DNA of 34,610 nucleotides, from IMG/VR virus record IMGVR_UViG_3300048851_000188, positions 1 through 34,610 of that record. The stretch is one strand, 5' to 3'. The first letter of the stretch is position 1, and every line of letters starts with the position of its first letter. The position numbers and the translations under genes are program-made. The notes beneath the pieces are model-generated. The model was not told the origin of the DNA, did not search any database, and saw only the letters and a program-made list of their open reading frames with translations. Positions 23,884-34,610 of the stretch are shown here, piece after piece. The stretch is from a virus (Duplodnaviria > Caudoviricetes).

Positions 23884-24272
23884 TGCTGATGTCGCTGGGG
23901 ATGTTCCCCTTCTCGCTCGACACCCTCGCGCATGAGGATCTGTCGCGCCGCACCGCCTGGCGTCATCCCACGTCGCAGCGCATCGGCCAGCGTGACGCGA
24001 CGCAATTCGTCGGTCCCGGCGAGGAAACAATCTCGATCGGCGGAACGGCCTATGCCGAGCTGACGGATGGCCGCGCCAGTCTCGATCAGCTGCGCGCCAT
24101 GGCGAACACCGGCGATGCTTGGCCGCTGGTCGACGGCGCCGGCATGGTCTTCGGCGCCTTCGTCATCCAGACGCTCGACGAACGGCACAAGCACCTGTTC
24201 GCCGATGGCACCCCGCGCTCGATCGACTTCCAGCTCGAACTGCTGCGCGTCGACAGCGAGCAGCCGGCATGA
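23883..24272 (+). CDS. U: Tail protein U
   Basis: MSLG.F.F, R.G....QFVGPG.E.I, WPLVDG.G, DGTPR.IDF.L.L.RVD. Confidence 0.94.
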   Translation: MLMSLGMFPFSLDTLAHEDLSRRTAWRHPTSQRIGQRDATQFVGPGEETISIGGTAYAELTDGRASLDQLRAMANTGDAWPLVDGAGMVFGAFVIQTLDERHKHLFADGTPRSIDFQLELLRVDSEQPA

Positions 24273-25291
24273 TCGCCAACATCCCCGACTATCGCGTGGA
24301 GGTGGACGGCGTCGACATCACCCCGCGTTTGCGCGACCCCGTTCCGGCCAACCGGAATCGCCCCCGCCTGATTTCGCTCGGTCTGACAGACAAGCGCGGC
24401 AATGAAGCCGACCAGCTCGACCTGGTGCTTGATGACAGCGACGGTGCCTTCAACCTGCCGCGCACCGGCGCCGTGATTCGCGTGCAGCTGGGCTGGAAGC
24501 AAGGCAGCGACGTCACGGTCGGCCTGGTCGACAAGGGCACCTTCATCGTCGACGAGGTGTCGCACACCGGCCCGCCCGACGTGATCACCGTTCGCGCCCG
24601 CGCTGCCGACTTCACCGGCGCCATGCGCGTCCGCCGAGAGCGCAGCTGGCGCGGCACCACGCTGGGCGCGATCGTCGCCGACGTTGCCCGCGCGCATGGG
24701 CTGACGCCGCGTTGTGCGCCCGCCCTGGCATCGATCCCGGTCACAACCAAGGCACAGAGCCGGGAGAGCGATCTCGCCTTCCTGCGCCGCCTGGGGCGCG
24801 ATCACGATGCTGCCGCGACGATCAAGCGGGGCAACCTGGTGCTGGCACCGCTCGGCAAGGCGGCGACCATCTCGGGCGTGAACCTGCCGGCGCTGACCAT
24901 TCACCGACGCGACGGCGATCGGCACGACTACCAGGTGCAGAAGCAAGAGGAGGTCACCGGCGTCACCGCCAGCTGGCACGATCGCGGCGCGGCGAAGAAA
25001 AAGACGGTGACCGTCGGCAAGGCGGATGGCGCGCGCAGGCTGTCCCGCACCTATGCCACCGAAGCGGACGCCGAGGCGGCGGCGCAGGCCGAGAGCAGCC
25101 GCGCCGCACGCCAGCCGCGCACGCTCGCGCTAAATCTTGCGCTCGGGCGTGCCGACATCAAGCCCGAACAGCGGGTCACCGCTTCCGGATTCAAGCAGGC
25201 GATCGACGTCCAGCGCTGGGTCGTTGCCGAGGTCTCCCACGCGCTGGGAGATCGTGGTTTCACTACCCAGGTAAAGCTGGAGGCCGCTTAG
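24269..25291 (+). CDS. D: Baseplate hub / late control protein D
   Basis: LTD.RG.EADQL, DKG.F.VDEV.H.GPPD, Q..ESD..FL.RL. Confidence 0.95.
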   Translation: MIANIPDYRVEVDGVDITPRLRDPVPANRNRPRLISLGLTDKRGNEADQLDLVLDDSDGAFNLPRTGAVIRVQLGWKQGSDVTVGLVDKGTFIVDEVSHTGPPDVITVRARAADFTGAMRVRRERSWRGTTLGAIVADVARAHGLTPRCAPALASIPVTTKAQSRESDLAFLRRLGRDHDAAATIKRGNLVLAPLGKAATISGVNLPALTIHRRDGDRHDYQVQKQEEVTGVTASWHDRGAAKKKTVTVGKADGARRLSRTYATEADAEAAAQAESSRAARQPRTLALNLALGRADIKPEQRVTASGFKQAIDVQRWVVAEVSHALGDRGFTTQVKLEAA

Positions 25292-26786: not shown

Positions 26787-27662
26787 CTAAAACTTCCGGT
26801 GAGTGCCAGGACCGGTAGATTCGGGTTGAGCGTCGGCACCCGTTTCTGCCTTAGGTGGACGCCCCGCTATGGGGGCATCATCGTTCGCAGCTCGGCTCAT
26901 TGCTTCAAAGTCTAGCGGACGAGCAGAAAGGTATTCTTCTGCTGTAAGCTCGCGTGTCGTCGCTAATCTCACAACAACATTTGGACACCACGCCTTGTCC
27001 AGCTTGCCTGTCATCAGCGGAATCATGGTCGCCGCCCAAGCTGCTCGCTGAGACGGGGTAGCAGTCACCGGCATGATACAGATGATGTCGATGCTGGGCG
27101 GGCGATCCACGTCATCCGCAACAACACGCAGTTCCTCAATTGCATCAACGAATCTACCTTCGTCGCTGTCCTTACCGGCGCGCGCTTTGATCCAGTCGCG
27201 CAATTTGTCGAACGCTGTAGCCCACAAATCGGGGAACGCATGCCGCGCCCTCTGGCGTCCAAGGGCGAATGAACAGTGCGATCTTGATTCTCGATCTTGG
27301 GGCGCCGGGACCCTCGTCCATTTGGATAAGACAGCCCTGTCGTAGGTCGCCGTCAGCTCCAGATCTGCTACCAAGTTTCGATGGCTAAGGGCAGGAACAT
27401 ATAAATAACGCGGCCTACGAAATTTGCGCACCTCCTCGACAAAACGCGCGTTTTGTTCGACCAGACCAGCAACTTGGATCAAGGCCGGCGATCCCGGGAG
27501 GGATGACCCATTCACGATGTCGCACGTCTGCGAAGTTATAACCACGCCCGCAACGCGGAGATCGATGATCTCGTTCTCCGCATTGACGTGGGGCAGAGCG
27601 TCTACATCGAGCGAAGCATCGCCCTGCCCCCATTCAGCGAAGTTCTCTTCCTCTGTGGACAT
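26787..27662 (-). CDS. Hypothetical protein with PemK/MazF-like N-terminal region (SQTCD motif), putative toxin
   Basis: GVVITSQTCDI, IQVA.L, VADL, R.R.AFPD. The fold assignment is an inference. Confidence 0.6.
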   Translation of the reverse strand: MSTEEENFAEWGQGDASLDVDALPHVNAENEIIDLRVAGVVITSQTCDIVNGSSLPGSPALIQVAGLVEQNARFVEEVRKFRRPRYLYVPALSHRNLVADLELTATYDRAVLSKWTRVPAPQDRESRSHCSFALGRQRARHAFPDLWATAFDKLRDWIKARAGKDSDEGRFVDAIEELRVVADDVDRPPSIDIICIMPVTATPSQRAAWAATMIPLMTGKLDKAWCPNVVVRLATTRELTAEEYLSARPLDFEAMSRAANDDAPIAGRPPKAETGADAQPESTGPGTHRKF

Positions 27663-27673
27663 GCGGTGCCGGC

Positions 27674-28258
27674 TTACGCCTCCCCAATCGGTCGTCGGGA
27701 TCGTGTACCCACCATCTGGAGCGGAGCCGCGACAAGAGAATGGTCGTTCTCAAGAATAGGGCCCGCCAGGCTCGGGCCACGCCGAGGCGATGCCCTCCCG
27801 CCGCGCGGCTCTACCTTGTACTCTAGGCTGAGAGCTAGGCCTGCGCTCGTCGGACCGAGACCCTTGAATAGCGTGCCCGCCCTTTCATGAAGACGCAGGA
27901 GACGATCTGCATTCATGCCCGTCGGTTCTTCACCGCTAGACCAGTTATGCACCGCCTTGCGGCTGACCGAGAGTATTTCTGCTATCGTGCCCCAAGCAAG
28001 ACCGGTCCAAAGACGGATCTCGCTCAGCGCCTGACTTGCAGAAATAGCGAGACGGCGACGCCGGTCGATAGCGTGGTCCTGTACAAGAGGCTGAACGCTG
28101 AGGGCAGAAACCATCCTATTGCCGGTCGCATGGCTTCCCGTTGAACCCACAAGCAGAGCTCCCGCGCCGATCGCTACGATCGTACACGATGCGGGCAGTC
28201 GATCCGGGAGGGAAAACGTTAAGCTCCGTCCGGTGCCTGTGTAGCGGAGATTACCCAC
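27674..28258 (-). CDS. XRE-type HTH protein with hydrophobic N-terminal extension, putative antitoxin/regulator
   Basis: LSEIR..TGL.W..IAEILSVSRKAVHNW..G; start overlaps the stop of the upstream gene. Confidence 0.72.
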   Translation of the reverse strand: MGNLRYTGTGRSLTFSLPDRLPASCTIVAIGAGALLVGSTGSHATGNRMVSALSVQPLVQDHAIDRRRRLAISASQALSEIRLWTGLAWGTIAEILSVSRKAVHNWSSGEEPTGMNADRLLRLHERAGTLFKGLGPTSAGLALSLEYKVEPRGGRASPRRGPSLAGPILENDHSLVAAPLQMVGTRSRRPIGEA

Positions 28259-29069
28259 GGCGATACTCCTGCAAGAACTCGTCAGAAATAGCCCATCGGA
28301 ACATCTGACAATTCAGGTTCGTAAGTTCGACAGCGATGTCACGAAGGTGGTCTGAAGACGTATCTCCAGTAAGCATCTGCGCAGCATCGATATCAAGCAG
28401 CCAAGCGGTATCAGCTAGGGGCGCCGTTATCATTTCACCAACGGTACCCGGCTTCAGCCGACCAGTCTTAATGATAAGCTTGGACGCCCCAACACTTCCT
28501 TCCGTTTGTCCGAATGAAGACTCAAAGTTGTTTCCGAATACTCTTCCGCCAAATCCAATCATCGCCGGATTTGTATACTTACTTATTCCGGCAAGGAGAT
28601 CGCCTTCGAACAGATTTACATACCGGAAACCCAAGCGACCTGGGACAACGGGTGAATAACTAGCGTGCAAGGCGTCCAGCAGATCGCCAAAGCGGTTGAT
28701 GAGATTATTGCGGCCCGCGTAGCTCTCGCCACTCGTCTGGATTGCAAGCGATTGATGCGTAAGCGTAACGATCCAGTCTTCGCTGATATCGGCGAATATC
28801 CACGCAGGATGACTTATGACCGATGGTTGATTGACCACCTGCCCAGCTTCATTCGCCTCGAAACGCAGTTCGTGCTGCTGCTCCGACCGGAAAATTGGAT
28901 AGGTGCTACGGACATGATCCTGAAACTTGGCCACGCCCTGCCCGGAGGGATCGCTAATTTTGAGGATCGGAGCGAATTGCATCACGCACAGCACGTGACG
29001 GAGCGGCGCCGAGGTGAGCGTCACGAGATCCGGCGCGGTGCCAGCGGAGAGGGGTGCGAGTCTTGTCAT
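28251..29069 (-). CDS. TIGR04255-like protein
   Basis: L..APL..V.C...F, YP, W.F, Y......F, R.G.RY.N, LLDID match my recollection of the family pattern. Confidence 0.75.
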   Translation of the reverse strand: MTRLAPLSAGTAPDLVTLTSAPLRHVLCVMQFAPILKISDPSGQGVAKFQDHVRSTYPIFRSEQQHELRFEANEAGQVVNQPSVISHPAWIFADISEDWIVTLTHQSLAIQTSGESYAGRNNLINRFGDLLDALHASYSPVVPGRLGFRYVNLFEGDLLAGISKYTNPAMIGFGGRVFGNNFESSFGQTEGSVGASKLIIKTGRLKPGTVGEMITAPLADTAWLLDIDAAQMLTGDTSSDHLRDIAVELTNLNCQMFRWAISDEFLQEYRRG

Positions 29070-29078
29070 GTGAACCGT

Positions 29079-29112
29079 TGTGTAAACTAAGTGTGTAACA
29101 CGAAAGTTGCAA
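29079..29112 (-). promoter_or_regulatory. Sigma70-like promoter of the three-gene operon, with overlapping TTACACA direct repeats
   Basis: Minus strand TTGCAA (29112-29107)-N17-TAGTTT (29089-29084); TTACACA at 29098-29092 and 29085-29079. Confidence 0.6.
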
Positions 29113-29281
29113 CCGGCTGCAGCATGCTCCAGCGATTTAAGTGTCCATCCTTAACCCAACACAGCTGCCTACCCCTAGTGGGCGACCACTCGCTAGTGAC
29201 AGCAGCGGACAGGCCCTCCGCCGTGGCTCAGCCAGCAGGCCCGAATCCGCGGGTTGAGAGCGGCTAGCTTGGCTCGATTGC

Positions 29282-30067
29282 TTACCGCCCCGCGCGCCGC
29301 GCCTCAGCCTCGGCTGCAACAGCTTCCTCCATGCACTCGGCATAACAAGCTGCCCAACGGTGCTCGTCCTCACAGATCACACCATCGGCGGCGATCACCC
29401 GCTGCACATACTGCGTCAGCACCGCCCGGGAGGTGCTACTGTGCGCGTACTGCCGGATCGCGCTTTCAAACACCTCGCCATCGGGCGCGAGCCTCCGGGC
29501 GTGGGCCACGATCCGGTCGAGCGGCGGTGATCCTTCCCACTCTTTCCGCAGCCACAGCGAACAGATGAAATCCTCGATCGTCTGCGTCTCCAGCGGGTGC
29601 CACTGGCCGTCGCAGCGCGCCATGAACGCCAGCACGTTCAAGCCGGCGACGATCAACGACTTCCGCGGCGAGGTGGTGTCCCACATGTCCGCTAGCGGCT
29701 TGGACGCGCTCACCGTGAACCGCTCGAAATAGGTGCCGTCGCCAAGGGACGCTCCCGTCTCGGCGTCGCAGACCTCCATGATCCGGTCGCATCGGAACAG
29801 CTTGTATCGCTTGGAGTTGCCACAGATCGCGCCAACGGAGGCATTACCGCCGACAGTCAGATAACGCCGGCAGCTTATCAGGCGCTCGGTGACGACCCCG
29901 CTGGCGTCGGCATATTCGATGACGCACAGGAACCCGGCGATCGCCTGGGGCTCGTCGGTATCATCCGGCGCATCGGGAAGAGTTTCGACGTCCTCGCAGT
30001 TTAGCAAGGCCGTGAGACCAGGCGGGAGAACCGCCTCCTTAACCGCGAACTCCTGAAGTGCCCCCAT
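29282..30067 (-). CDS. WYL-like domain plus TerB-like domain protein
   Basis: IEY.DASG..TER.I...A.C.....K.FR.DRI (WYL-like); L.FMARCDG..HP.E and VI.ADG.I...E (TerB-like); GGGGGAG ribosome site. Confidence 0.8.
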   Translation of the reverse strand: MGALQEFAVKEAVLPPGLTALLNCEDVETLPDAPDDTDEPQAIAGFLCVIEYADASGVVTERLISCRRYLTVGGNASVGAICGNSKRYKLFRCDRIMEVCDAETGASLGDGTYFERFTVSASKPLADMWDTTSPRKSLIVAGLNVLAFMARCDGQWHPLETQTIEDFICSLWLRKEWEGSPPLDRIVAHARRLAPDGEVFESAIRQYAHSSTSRAVLTQYVQRVIAADGVICEDEHRWAACYAECMEEAVAAEAEARRAGR

Positions 30068-30187
30068 GCTCCCCCCTATCGTCGCCCCTTAGAAGCCCGC
30101 TGCTTCACTCCGGGACGTGGTCAAATGTTTACCGGCAGACAGCGTGTTTGCCGCCGCTTTCCTACAAGCCTCGGCAAGGTCATATGA

Positions 30188-30202
30188 GAACGGAATAGGA
30201 AC
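30188..30202 (+). promoter_or_regulatory. Alphaproteobacterial LexA (SOS) box
   Basis: GAAC-GGAATAG-GAAC, exact GAAC-N7-GAAC direct repeat in an AT-rich intergenic context. Confidence 0.8.
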
Positions 30203-30218
30203 AAATACCGAGTCACTC

Positions 30219-30509
30219 TTGAACGAACCCGTCTTTCGAACTGCCCCAGGATGCGAGCTTGCCTGCGACCGCTGCGAGGTCATGTGCGCGATCCTGGCTG
30301 GGACACGGGATGATCTGTGGCGGGAGGTGGAGGCGCTGCATCGGGAGCGGTCGCTTGCCCCGTCGCCTCGGACGGAAGAACGCTTGCGAGCCGCGCTAGG
30401 CCATTTGGAAGCCGCTGAGCGAGAATTCGCGCGAGTTCGTCCTTCGGGGCAGCTAGATCGAGCGGCCGAAGCAGCCCTTCGAACATGCGCGCCAAAGCGG
30501 CCTCACTAG
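30219..30509 (+). CDS. Putative SOS-induced Cys-rich protein, antisense to the 3' end of cI (candidate antirepressor)
   Basis: TTG 16 nt after the LexA box; CxxxCxxCxxxC followed by amphipathic helices. Start codon uncertain. Confidence 0.5.
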   Translation: MNEPVFRTAPGCELACDRCEVMCAILAGTRDDLWREVEALHRERSLAPSPRTEERLRAALGHLEAAEREFARVRPSGQLDRAAEAALRTCAPKRPH

Positions 30510-30849
30510 GTAAGACAACCCCCATGGGGATGACCTGATCGTCTGTCCTTAAATGCCCGCTGAGCGAGGCTGATCGGGAGGTCAACTTCCCCTCGGAAGG
30601 CTCGGGGGCTTCCTGCTCGATGCCGGCGAGCGCAAGCACGTCTGCGACCGCTACCCCGTGGGTGCTCAGAGGCTTTGCAACAGCCTTCGCAAACCCGACG
30701 GGGAGATACTGCTTTTTGAACTTCTTAGGGTCTTCGTAGAAGGCATAGGACGACGGTGCGATACCCAGCTCTTCCGATAGGCGCCTGATGCTCAGCCGCG
30801 GGTGAGTGCTGTCGCGAAGGCGTTTCAGACGGACTGCGGCGGTCTCCAT
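30280..30849 (-). CDS. Prophage repressor (cI-like XRE HTH, no S24 peptidase domain)
   Basis: RLKRLR....LSIRRLSEELGI..SSY..YE; divergent from the cro-like gene. Confidence 0.8.
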   Translation of the reverse strand: METAAVRLKRLRDSTHPRLSIRRLSEELGIAPSSYAFYEDPKKFKKQYLPVGFAKAVAKPLSTHGVAVADVLALAGIEQEAPEPSEGKLTSRSASLSGHLRTDDQVIPMGVVLPSEAALARMFEGLLRPLDLAAPKDELARILAQRLPNGLARLASVLPSEATGQATAPDAAPPPPATDHPVSQPGSRT

Positions 30850-30870
30850 CACAAACTCGTCGCGGAAAAA

Positions 30871-30926
30871 TCGTACACTGTCTGTACGAAATAGTCATTG
30901 CACGTTGTACGACTCCTTCGTACATG
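30871..30926. promoter_or_regulatory. Lysis/lysogeny switch: operators and rightward promoter
   Basis: TCGTACA-N5-TGTACGA (30871-30889), TGTACGA-N5-TCGTACA (30906-30924); TTGCAC (30898-30903)-N17-TACATG (30921-30926). Confidence 0.72.
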
Positions 30927-30932
30927 TCGCAC

Positions 30933-31223
30933 ATGATCAGCGAGACGGACCTGTTCGAGTGCTTCGGCGGCATTCGCCCGATGGCTAAGGAGTTGGGTGA
31001 ACGCCCGACCACCGTGCAGGCTTGGAAGAGTACCGGACGAGTTCCAGCCTCAAAACAGCCGCTTGTTCTCGATCGAGCTAGTGAACTGCACCTCGACGTT
31101 GTTCCTTACGATGTTGTCTTTCCGCTCTCTGCACGCCGCCGCGCCTCCAGCGAGCAAGTAGCCGCTCTAAGCGGGGCAGTCGCATCGAATGCCGACAGCA
31201 TTTTCGATCGGAAGCAGGCGTGA
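30933..31223 (+). CDS. Cro-like HTH protein
   Basis: FGGIRPMA.ELG..PTTVQ.WK..GR.P; first gene of the early operon. Confidence 0.82.
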   Translation: MISETDLFECFGGIRPMAKELGERPTTVQAWKSTGRVPASKQPLVLDRASELHLDVVPYDVVFPLSARRRASSEQVAALSGAVASNADSIFDRKQA

Positions 31224-31714
31224 CCGTGCCCCGCACCCCTGACACGTCGGCCGATGCCGTGCTGCAGATCGCTGGGCGCATTGGCTATGATGCGGCCGCA
31301 AAGATCGTCGGGCGCAAGTCAGCCTGCATCCGGGACTGGACGAACGAGGCGACCACCTCCTGCCCCAGCTTCGCCCAAGCGGTCGCCCTGGATGCTGCGT
31401 ACATCGCTGCCGGCGGCGAGAATGCCCCGCTGCATGACGCTTATGCCGTGCAGCTGGAGATCGTCGTTGCCGAGCGCACCGCCTGCGCAAACTCCCTTTC
31501 CCGCGAGGTGGCGACCGCCGCCCGCGAGTTCGGCGACCTGATCGCCGCCAGTTTGCCGGTCTGCCAGCCCGGCTACAGCCCCAACGATGCGCAGCGCGCG
31601 CTTCTCGAAGCCGACCAGGCCGAAAGCGCGCTCGCCGCCGTCAAGCGCCGGCTGTTCAGTTTCCTAAAGACCGGCGCGGGGCCGGTCGGGAAAGCCGGGG
31701 GTTCCCACCAATGA
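31220..31714 (+). CDS. CII-like phage regulatory protein
   Basis: N-terminal HTH (AA.IVGR....IR.W), A..LD.AY..AGG, helical C-terminus; follows cro. Confidence 0.62.
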   Translation: MTVPRTPDTSADAVLQIAGRIGYDAAAKIVGRKSACIRDWTNEATTSCPSFAQAVALDAAYIAAGGENAPLHDAYAVQLEIVVAERTACANSLSREVATAAREFGDLIAASLPVCQPGYSPNDAQRALLEADQAESALAAVKRRLFSFLKTGAGPVGKAGGSHQ

Positions 31715-32046
31715 GTCGCATCGCGCGTCCGCGCCAGCCTTCTTTCGACTGCCCACACTGCCGATCGCGCGCGATCGTGCGCAGCAGCGCACAAGTCACG
31801 TCACTGGTCCGCGAGCTGGACTATGCCTGCACGAACCACCGCTGCGGGCACACCTTCGTCGCCCAGCTGGAGGCGGTTCGCACCATCGTTCCCAGCGCGA
31901 TGCCGAACGCCGCCATCCACCTGCCCTTCGGCAACCGTAACCTTGGGCCGAAGCGCCTGCCGGTTCCCGCCAACGACGACAACCGCGACCCAGCGAACGA
32001 CGCTGGTCCGGACGTCGCCCAGGCGCCCGATCCCATGAGCGGCTGA
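31711..32046 (+). CDS. ogr: Ogr/Delta-family zinc-finger late transcription activator
   Basis: CPHC...A.VRSS...Y.C.N..CGHTF......RTI.PS. Confidence 0.93.
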   Translation: MSRIARPRQPSFDCPHCRSRAIVRSSAQVTSLVRELDYACTNHRCGHTFVAQLEAVRTIVPSAMPNAAIHLPFGNRNLGPKRLPVPANDDNRDPANDAGPDVAQAPDPMSG

Positions 32047-32159
32047 TCCACCGCGGCACCCGCCGCCCGCCCGCTTCTCCCCGACTGCCCTGTTTACCCG
32101 GCTTTGCACCCCGCTGCCGGCATCGCCCCCGCTTTGCCCTGTTCCCGAAAGGATGCCCC

Positions 32160-32621
32160 ATGCTGCACCGTCACGCCTTCACCACATCGCCGCGCAAGCG
32201 GTTCCTTCCCCGCATCCCCGATGCACGGCTGCTGACGCCCGAGGGCTATCTGCGCCTGCGCCGCAAGGCTGCCGGTCTTGAGATCCGCGACCTCGCCGCG
32301 CGGCTAACCGAGCTGCGCTCCGCGTTGGTTGAGGCCGGCGAGCTGCCCGCCGACATGCTGGCGATCGGCCGCGATTTCGTCTCGATCCTCCTCATGCTTG
32401 AGGCGCCGAGCGTCCGCGCCCGCATGCGAGAAACGCTCGACGCGATCGCCGCGGTGATGCCGTTCGATGCCGACGTCTACCAGCAGCTGGCCGACGTGGA
32501 CCCGTGTCGCCATCCGCGCGTCTGTCGCGGCTGCGGCACCTCGACCCACGATCATGACATGCCGAGCTGGGCGACGGCGACCAGCTGCACTCGCTGCGAT
32601 CCCGCTGGGGAAGGCCTGTGA
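32160..32621 (+). CDS. XRE-like HTH protein with C-terminal CxxC...CxxC zinc finger
   Basis: YLRLRRKAAGL.I.DLA; CRGCG...W....CTRC. Confidence 0.72.
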   Translation: MLHRHAFTTSPRKRFLPRIPDARLLTPEGYLRLRRKAAGLEIRDLAARLTELRSALVEAGELPADMLAIGRDFVSILLMLEAPSVRARMRETLDAIAAVMPFDADVYQQLADVDPCRHPRVCRGCGTSTHDHDMPSWATATSCTRCDPAGEGL

Positions 32622-33270: not shown

Positions 33271-33521
33271 GCCCGGAATTCGACCCACAGGCGCGTCTGC
33301 AGAGCAAGGCTGGCATCTGCGCATACCTGGGACACATCAGCACCGCGACCTATGACATCTGGGCGCAGAAGGGCTTGGTGCCTGGCCCCGTGCGTGGGAC
33401 CAATCGCTACGACGTGCGCGCGCACGACCAGCTGCTCGACCGCCATGCCCGCCTAGACACCGGCACGACCACCCTCTCGCCGCTCGAACAGTGGGAGGCG
33501 GAACATGCGCGTGCCGCTTAA
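33267..33521 (+). CDS. Excisionase-like winged-HTH protein
   Basis: ICAYLG.IS..TY..W..KGL.P.P..GT.RYD; overlaps the integrase start. Confidence 0.75.
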   Translation: MSPEFDPQARLQSKAGICAYLGHISTATYDIWAQKGLVPGPVRGTNRYDVRAHDQLLDRHARLDTGTTTLSPLEQWEAEHARAA

Positions 33522-34610
33522 GGGCGTCTACGCCAGCAAGAAGAAGCTCGCGGACGGCACGCGCCGGACCTACTACTTCCTGCGCGGGTTCGGCGCCCTA
33601 AAGCCCCAAGACGGCGACGAGGCAGAAGAGTTCGCGCCCGGCACCCCTGCGTTCATGCGGGCCTTTCACGCCGCGATTCAGGCGCCCCGCATCGCCCGCA
33701 CCCATGGCACGCTTCAGGCGATCATCGACGGGTATCAGCGGTCGCCCCAGTATCTGAAGCTCGCACCCAGGACAAAGCGCGACTACGACGCCGCGCTGCT
33801 CCGCATTGGCGAGCGGTTCGGCAACCACCCGCTGGCGGTGATCGAAGACCCAAAAATCCGCGTGCGCTTCCTCCAGTGGCGGGACGATCGCGCCAAGACG
33901 TCCGCGCGCCAGGCGGACGCCGTGCTGGGCGTGCTTCGCATCGTCCTCGAATGGGGTCGCGATCGTGGCCTGCTGATGCACAACCACGCGACGCGTCCGA
34001 AGAAGGTCTACAAGGCGGATCGCGCGGACAAGCTATGGCTGCCGCCGGATATTGCAGCGCTGCAGGAGGTTGCCGAGCCTGAAATTAGGCTCGCGTTCGA
34101 ACTGGCGCTGGGTACCGGCCAACGCAAGGGTGACCTCCTGGCATTGCCCTGGACGGCCTATGATGGCGCACGCATCCGGCTGCGGCAGGCAAAGCGCAAT
34201 CGCATGATCGACATGCCGGTCACTCAGTCGCTGAAGGCGCTCCTGGATGCGCAGCCGCGCACCGCCAAGACGATCCTGACGCGCAACGACAAGCCATGGG
34301 GCAAGGTCAACTTCGACCATCGCTGCGGGAGACGGTCGTTCGCGCCGGACGCGACGGACTGCACTTCCACGACCTGCGGGGGACCGCCTGCACCATCCTC
34401 GCGCAAGCCGGTGCCACGCCATCAGAAATCGCCGCGATGCTCGGCTGGACCGTCTCCACCGTCGCCCGAATGCTCGATCTCTACCAGGCGATGACCGCGT
34501 CGCTGAGCGATTCTGCGGTCGCAAAACTCGAAGCGCGCAATGCGCAGCTGCGGAACGAGGTGCGGAACGCGCCCGAAGCGCACACCGAAAAAGGGGAAGA
34601 AAGTGAATAA
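33505..34610 (+). pseudogene. int: Tyrosine integrase with a 1-nt deletion frameshift near 34326
   Basis: TGQR.GDL in the first frame; FHDLRGT, LGW and catalytic Y (LDLY) in the second. CGCTGCGGGAG restores to R-W-R-E with one extra G. Confidence 0.9.

Follow-up and report, generated by a model that had tools for sequence, protein, structure and literature searches.

The window, meaning the whole 34,610-nt (34.6-kb) virus record analysed here, has a P2-like layout, comprising a tail GPD gene, cargo genes, a repressor gene, and cro-like, cII-like and ogr genes. The features considered are as follows.

24119–25291: tail GPD (PF05954)
29282..30067, − strand: WYL/TerB-like cargo gene, with weak PF13280 and PF05099 matches; a neighbour outside the module
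30158..30165, + strand: TTTCCTAC, a likely promoter element, considered both as a −10 and as a −35 element
30188..30202, + strand: GAAC-N7-GAAC direct repeat GAACGGAATAGGAAC, a predicted alphaproteobacterial LexA operator
30219..30509, + strand: gene for a 96-aa protein (hereafter the ORF) with a C-x3-C-x2-C-x3-C cluster and a predicted helical hairpin; candidate antirepressor
30219..30353, + strand: ORF codons 1–45, with the ORF frame dominant; first outside cI and then facing its Pro/Ala tail
30280..30849, − strand: cI-like repressor of 189 aa, with an XRE-type helix-turn-helix (HTH), a linker, a helical C-terminal domain and a disordered tail; divergent from cro
30399..30509, − strand: cI residues ~114–150, the conserved helical C-terminal domain, with the cI frame dominant; doubly constrained in part where it faces ORF helix 2
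30507..30509, + strand: ORF stop codon TAG, made by cI codon 114 (Pro, CCT) together with the initial base of Ser115
30924..31223, + strand: cro-like gene with a carph-isopro domain (NF046037, E 1.9e-13, above the cut-off)
31220–31714, + strand: cII-like gene (phrog_38866, E 2.8e-39)
31711–32046, + strand: ogr/delta-like late activator gene (PF04606, E 4.5e-17)

The cII-like and ogr/delta-like genes (31220..32046) form the early lytic operon of the P2-like prophage. Between cI and cro, TCGTAC/GTACGA half-sites recur (30871–30925), including an inverted repeat at 30871–30889, and these are likely repressor operators; similar repeats are also present in locus L001. At the end of the window, a frameshift near 34320 interrupts the integrase gene (33505–34610): the N-terminal frame (33505–34494) loses sense there, and the C-terminal part, which looks catalytic, is in a different frame, suggesting an assembly error or a broken gene. 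The minus-strand cargo block at 26787–29069 contains three genes, encoding a TIGR04255-family protein (E 3.5e-31), a small HTH-like protein and a 291-aa protein, and is possibly a defence or toxin-antitoxin-like unit; PADLOC returned no match for this block. A search of the region 29000–32500 against Rfam gave no match.

The cI-like repressor carries no S24 autocleavage domain, as the preliminary description of this DNA held: PF00717 was not matched, and the only matches were weak ones to HTH domains. The monomer model comprises the XRE-type HTH and two helices (residues 116–127 and 136–157), followed by a tail that is predicted to be disordered. Weak Foldseek matches, including the N-terminal domain of SinR, cover only the HTH part (E 0.04–0.07). 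The C-terminal domain, which presumably drives oligomerisation, is joined to many unrelated HTH domains across the loci, and Pfam detected PF00717 in none of 25 repressors that carry it. A ribbon-helix-helix reading of this domain found no support, as the monomer model has no strand and the PDB has no sequence match. The tail is dispensable, since it is predicted to be disordered and is truncated in L321, L381 and L396, in which the ORF is intact.

The box, the antisense gene and its protein family

The exact GAAC-N7-GAAC box GAACGGAATAGGAAC reported earlier lies 77 nt past the cI stop codon (30280–30282) and is the sole exact match within the window. By itself the box is at chance level (58 of 100 shuffles of the window contain one), and neither the box alone nor the open frame alone exceeds chance; their significance derives from relatives. 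The box is exact in 72 of the 77 distinct ORF copies, has one mismatch in three, and is missing from two (L267, L287, L360, L373 and L412 are copies that lack the box), and its spacing to the ORF start is 13–21 nt in 42 of 44 representatives. Motifs of this type are the LexA motif of Alphaproteobacteria in the available passages of PMC8565304. Four related sphingomonad genomes that carry the module were read as stand-ins for the window's host, and the reverse complement of the box, GTTC-N7-GTTC, is located upstream of lexA and recA in 8/8 promoters. Host LexA would be expected to bind the box.

The element TTTCCTAC retains at least 7 of its 8 bases in 36 of 44 box-bearing representatives, 21–26 nt upstream of the box, and TTTCCTA precedes the box in three of the four host lexA promoters as well. 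Neither spacing model fits the promoter geometry of this element (TTG at −35 in 2/36; TA at −12 in 9/36), and promoter recognition for the ORF recognised none. The ribosome-binding site of the window ORF is weak. A scan with the promoter pattern returned mostly chance matches, with a Cys-containing ORF in 14 of 120 loci, and GAAC-N7-GAAC matches near cro in L258, L260, L300 and L306 were discarded as lying inside the cro coding sequence. In L139 and L217, which belong to other phages, the layout of TTTCCTAC and GAAC-N7-GAAC fronts a different family of small proteins (~60 aa, no Cys), a second candidate SOS-controlled phage gene. L267 and L287 have the ORF and the C-terminal-domain repressor but no LexA box, and possibly respond to an input other than SOS; in L267, a LuxR-like HTH gene (identified by eye) lies just upstream on the opposite strand.

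The plus-strand frame at 30219–30509 is open for 96 codons from TTG and overlaps cI by 230 nt, confirming the earlier account. Although the frame in the window is open already from GTG 30117, we place the start at 30219, outside cI, because 71 of the 77 copies have NTG there and in-frame stops directly precede it in L043 and L087. The family was collected with a cI profile (24 of 44 matches aligned), which retrieved 38 viral and 12 GTDB loci from Sphingomonas, Sphingobium, Novosphingobium, Croceibacterium and one further alphaproteobacterium. Each of these 50 rows, retrieved by the cI profile alone, has an ORF-profile match (50/50), two of them to degenerate ORFs (L038, L039). The ORF profile added 65 further rows, giving 77 distinct ORF copies including that of the window, of which 75 end in TAG and 71 are 96–97 codons long. 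The cI C-terminal domain is encoded on the opposite strand in 77/77 loci and overlaps the ORF in 74. Metagenome contigs gave 38 rows (21 duplicates, 4 unmatched by the pattern and 13 new), and box, start and TAG are present in 12 of the 13 new copies. Within the order, the family was found in 7 of the 401 genomes searched; a class-wide search of 401 genomes yielded just two weak matches, lacking the Cys motif.

Residues C12, C16, C19, C23, R30, W34, E38 and R42 are invariant in 34/34 aligned members. AlphaFold2 predicts helices 21–46 and 50–73 with a mean pLDDT of 72, exceeding 90 in the hairpin core, and with low confidence in the Cys region. The four invariant Cys are the sole basis for suggesting that the protein binds metal. 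Their spacing resembles that of DUF326 copper-storage repeats; this identity was dropped, as the 34 members gave no Pfam match to it. The terminal His was likewise dropped as a functional residue: it is invariant in the 34-member alignment and present in three duplicated copies, but missing from both free-standing copies.

Of 1.84 billion representatives searched with the profile, 64 are ORF-family proteins already called as genes; ten were looked up, and the two with names are both a 'hypothetical protein'. Pfam, PHROGs and NCBIfam gave no match for the window ORF protein, and a single-sequence search with it found no called homologue among 43 candidates. The 34 members gave scattered matches (best E 0.0005), none to known antirepressor families. 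No usable match was found in the ESM Atlas, a PDB sequence search returned designed or coiled-coil proteins only, and fold searches returned only generic helical hairpins (best Z 9.6), which does not make the fold new. The family is unclassified and appears to be new. Short relatives of 59–93 aa also exist (P0084, P0090, P0094, P0098, P0105 and P0079–P0107), some of which lack the terminal His and have one more helix at the N terminus.

Selection on two overlapping frames

Selection on the two frames was estimated from 27 independent pairs drawn from 63 ungapped copies, 14 of the 77 being excluded for length or separation. In ORF codons 2–20 and 21–45, dN/dS is 0.18 and 0.16 for the ORF, versus 1.8 and 2.6 for the cI-phase frame; in codons 46–60, it is ~0.6 in both frames; and opposite codons 61–76 and 77–96, it is 0.17 and 0.09 for cI, versus 1.6 and 4.9 for the ORF. 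Ratios of third- to second-position differences in the ORF frame follow the same segments (175:63, 164:41, 44:46, 13:60 and 16:130, from codons 2–20 to codons 77–96). Specifically, the 19 ORF codons outside cI show a protein-type codon-position pattern (175:63, p 2e-13), and the low cI dN/dS opposite codons 61–96 (0.09–0.17) verifies that the cI frame there encodes a real protein, as had been proposed. Fourfold sites of cI are variable in 51 of 306 cases opposite ORF codons 61–76 and in 85 of 289 opposite codons 77–96 (p=0.0003), the lower proportion opposite ORF helix 2 being a sign of double constraint in these alignments.

The ORF stop is also maintained. The Pro codon that forms it is CCT in 46/46 representatives versus 43 of 226 Pro codons in non-overlapped cI, and relatives without the overlap have CCG at that Pro. 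As a control, the antisense frame of equal phase was followed across 76 cI codons outside the overlap; it is open there in 3/46, versus 46/46 within the overlap. For the window cI alone, the overlap frame is open in 18.5% of synonymous resamplings (mean over genes 0.24). The suggested check of both frames and the box in homologues thus found box, start and stop conserved, with purifying selection acting on both frames.

By these measures the overlap is largely segregated. The Cys cluster and helix 1 of the ORF lie outside cI or opposite its tail, and the cI domain faces helix 2 and the passenger tail of the ORF. The preliminary description had envisaged that the shared DNA forces the two proteins to co-evolve; this applies to approximately ORF codons 46–76, which are constrained in both frames, but not elsewhere, since the most conserved part of the ORF, with the four Cys and helix 1, is outside cI or opposite its dispensable tail.

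Separated pairs and alternation with S24 repressors

In several loci the two genes do not share DNA, and separated ORFs keep the box with them. In L112, L078 and L087, an inserted cargo gene (spacing 0.7–2.1 kb) splits the module with partial duplication (92–95% identity), leaving the box and the whole ORF on one side and a tail-less cI on the other; the ORF stop is now TAA or TGA in two of the three. In L415, ORF and repressor do not overlap and a cargo gene lies between them; an inverted repeat 3′ of this ORF was not scored as a terminator. In L212, the box, the ORF and a similar repressor (identified by eye) are convergent, ~25 nt apart, with no overlap. In L357, the sole locus with the C-terminal domain (CTD) but without an adjacent ORF, the box is found 620 nt away, past a cargo gene, together with a homologue of 86 aa (profile E 6e-10 and 2e-9). 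The L357 and L212 repressors have the CCG codon and an acidic tail. Because both genes survive separation in five loci, a small number, a protein acting in trans is favoured over an antisense RNA. The promoter-pattern scan also found divergent overlapped modules in L159, L173, L182, L199 and L206, with the repressor identified by eye and by position; in L173, a gene at 877–1252 in the sense direction after the box, in the cro position, resembles a LexA DNA-binding domain by eye.

To keep the module itself out of the selection, prophages were picked by their cII-like gene, using the best 80 of 181 viral matches and 30 of 35 matches in 401 genomes of the family. The resulting set of 109 distinct loci includes the window; 17 untypable loci and 7 with <260 nt of sequence past the stop codon of the repressor (6 S24, 1 CTD) were dropped. 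The sample leans towards relatives, as the loci behind the cII profile comprised 21 with the module and one of the S24 type. Among prophages with S24 repressors, ORF and box are each present in 0/41; among those with CTD repressors, the ORF is adjacent in 43/44, a co-occurrence that is partly automatic where both share DNA (separated cases number five), and the exact box is present in 40/44. In the 44th CTD prophage the ORF is 620 nt away, so that 44/44 CTD prophages have one. A Pfam check of the type labels on 53 of 91 repressors found PF00717 in 28/28 S24 and 0/25 CTD repressors.

On a FastTree phylogeny of cII, repressor type changes 13 times, and strong branches require 8 of these changes. 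Among 8 independent pairs, ORF presence tracks repressor type in 7.7 and the reverse never occurs (sign test, p about 0.008). By cII, the closest relative of the window (L258, 84%) is of the S24 type. L001 combines a window-like HTH head with an S24-type end and no module. The module and S24 repressors strictly alternate. Seen across the loci, the box, the ORF and the C-terminal domain are one ~350-nt cassette fused to many unrelated HTH domains, an arrangement that would allow a phage to change immunity yet keep its trigger, or to swap the cassette for an S24 domain.

A candidate induction trigger and its alternatives

We consider it probable that the 96-codon ORF, as a conserved protein gene, encodes an SOS-induced antirepressor that acts on the cI C-terminal domain. 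In an undamaged cell, host LexA is predicted to repress the ORF at the GAAC-N7-GAAC box. DNA damage triggers RecA-driven cleavage of LexA, as is established for the SOS response; this would release the box and allow the ORF protein to be made. The protein would then bind the repressor at its helical C-terminal domain, likely breaking its oligomer, and inactivation of the repressor would free the cro-cII-ogr operon. The core of the preliminary description, namely a putative LexA-controlled protein gene lying antisense in the gene of a non-cleavable repressor and likely serving as the induction trigger, passed all sequence tests that were run, with conservation of the box and of the two frames, and with alternation between the module and S24 repressors.

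Alternatively, the ORF could encode a real SOS-induced protein that acts elsewhere, on a host factor, Cro or RNA polymerase, or as a metal/redox sensor that aids lytic growth, the prophage being induced by another route. Consistent with this, no family, fold or mimicry link connects the protein to repressor binding; mimicry of the cI C-terminal domain, specifically, gained no support (profile–profile probability 0.3%). The four invariant Cys further suggest a cofactor, which AimX proteins, as described in the preprint passages cited below, do not need, and several shorter relatives have a different architecture (P0084, P0090, P0098, P0105). However, a generic helper would be expected with both repressor types, whereas the ORF accompanies every CTD prophage and none of the S24 type, and ORF and repressor remain neighbours even when they do not overlap. 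We therefore regard action elsewhere as unlikely.

Slightly less likely again, in our view, is that the transcript is the working product, either silencing cI by antisense pairing or collision, or reading through into cro-cII-ogr on the same strand. The promoter region is aimed into cI, 230 nt are perfectly complementary, and no plus-strand terminator-like site was seen at 29900–31300. However, an RNA needs neither protein-level selection (dN/dS 0.16–0.18) nor a fixed start and stop, and L415 and L212 have no overlap, with a cargo gene intervening in L415. Moreover, in the available passages on phi106, recoding and stop alleles of aimX indicate that the RNA matters little (bioRxiv 10.1101/2025.11.23.689978). 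The antisense-RNA arm of the initial proposal thus gained no support here, and the separated pairs argue that it is not required, although the transcript may still contribute in cis.

The box might instead control the leftward cargo gene, or cI read-through into it, leaving the ORF incidental. In most loci the box does have cI on one side and a same-strand gene on the other. The leftward cargo varies by locus, however, with WYL-TerB, the gene originally suggested as a target, in just 5 of 77; the box remains at its fixed distance from the ORF start and travels with separated ORFs; and S24 prophages have cargo at the same place beside the repressor, yet no box. We consider this control very improbable. 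The least probable explanation, that the frame is open as a by-product of the constraints on cI coding in G+C-rich DNA, could draw on synonymous resamplings, about a quarter of which leave the frame open by chance for one gene, and on the lack of a called homologue for the exact window protein, but is refuted by the codon-position pattern outside cI, the rare Pro codon fixed to form the stop, the free-standing copies and the 64 representatives called as proteins elsewhere.

An antirepressor acting on cI has a close parallel in Bacillus. In the available passages of Kabel et al. (bioRxiv 10.1101/2025.11.23.689978), phi106 has a LexA site, a 29-aa aimX and a 30-bp antisense overlap of aimX with aimC behind that site, and the earlier statement that LexA-repressed antirepressors are known as separate genes only is to be corrected in this respect. 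The AimX protein, not the RNA, is described there as inactivating AimC, with predicted binding to its C-terminal oligomerisation domain. As far as those passages extend, the module resembles the AimX-AimC-AimL module of the phi106 family in having a LexA site followed by a small ORF that is convergent with, and overlaps, the repressor's end; a short repressor that is itself unresponsive to RecA and consists of an HTH, a linker and a helical C-terminal domain (for oligomerisation in AimC); a divergent cro-like gene; and a small helical candidate antirepressor predicted to bind the C-terminal domain. Unlike AimX as described there (29–80 aa), the ORF protein has 96 aa and four invariant Cys, and is found in Alphaproteobacteria behind a GAAC-N7-GAAC box. 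The overlap spans 206–242 nt across a conserved domain here, versus the 30 bp described for phi106. Unlike in arbitrium systems, the upstream neighbour is WYL/TerB-like and on the opposite strand (with varied cargo in relatives), and no aimR/aimP or other arbitrium genes were seen. No sequence link between the ORF family and AimX was found.

In the available passages of PMC3121763, Tum (186), AntC (N15) and GftA/GfoA (Gifsy) are LexA-repressed antirepressors of non-cleavable repressors, and the locus shares with these a repressor without S24 and a host-type LexA operator before a small gene (72/77 exact). According to the same passages, the Gifsy antirepressors belong to a distinct dinI operon, 1.3 kb past the replication genes, whereas the gene described here is nested in cI, and Tum has 146 aa and a DinI-like half. 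No profile match of the ORF family to Tum, AntC or Gifsy antirepressors was found. The module as predicted works like the Tum/AntC/Gifsy and AimX/AimC systems but is outside their protein families; phage 186 is P2-related.

Compared with lambda-type self-cleaving CI (HTH and Peptidase_S24, PF00717), the repressor occupies the same slot between cargo and cro, at times with the same HTH lineage (L001), and lambda-type CI represents the alternative state, in which ORF and box are missing (41/41 such loci). Like SinR of B. subtilis, the repressor joins an XRE HTH to a small helical C-terminal domain. SinR-type domains are a known target of small antirepressors, SinI being a mimic of the SinR domain. 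Unlike SinR/SinI, only the HTH matches, and the profiles of the ORF and the cI domain do not align. Searches of the open-access full-text literature found no description of this sphingomonad module; the main text of PMC12486242, on Citromicrobium prophages, contains neither 'LexA' nor 'antirepressor', and the available passages of PMC6472365 make no statement on prophage induction.

The LexA-controlled antirepressor logic itself has precedents in 186 Tum and Gifsy, and most of all in Bacillus AimX/AimC. Novel here are the family to which the protein belongs, the extent of dual coding across the likely target domain, the way in which cassette and S24 domain replace one another, and a natural range of forms that runs from overlapped to free-standing. 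We are evenly divided on a joint reading that goes further: a new metal-binding antirepressor family would be coded opposite its target domain, with operator, trigger and target combined in a 350-nt cassette that recombination cannot split, that is interchangeable with S24 and that can be joined to DNA-binding heads of any kind. With a target domain common to different immunity groups, the protein of one phage could induce co-resident prophages that are heteroimmune to it, and a redox/metal checkpoint on SOS induction could come from the Cys cluster.

The preferred reading, an SOS-induced antirepressor, would explain how about half (44/85) of the classified P2-like sphingomonad prophages sampled respond to damage without a cleavable repressor. 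The ORF is mostly missed by gene callers because it is hidden under cI. The overlap, in which selection acts on both strands and one stretch of bases encodes a regulator together with its likely inhibitor, is an unusually well supported case of a long antisense protein overlap in a phage, and the overlapped, duplicated and free-standing forms found in nature provide a series for following how an overlap of this kind originates and is resolved. Cultured, non-pathogenic hosts carry close copies of the module, among them Sphingomonas molluscorum JCM 14122 (L045) and S. desiccabilis CP1D (L046), whose C-terminal domains are 84% and 82% identical, respectively; one Novosphingobium genome (L257, G004:C33) contains two modules in two prophages, a natural cross-induction system.
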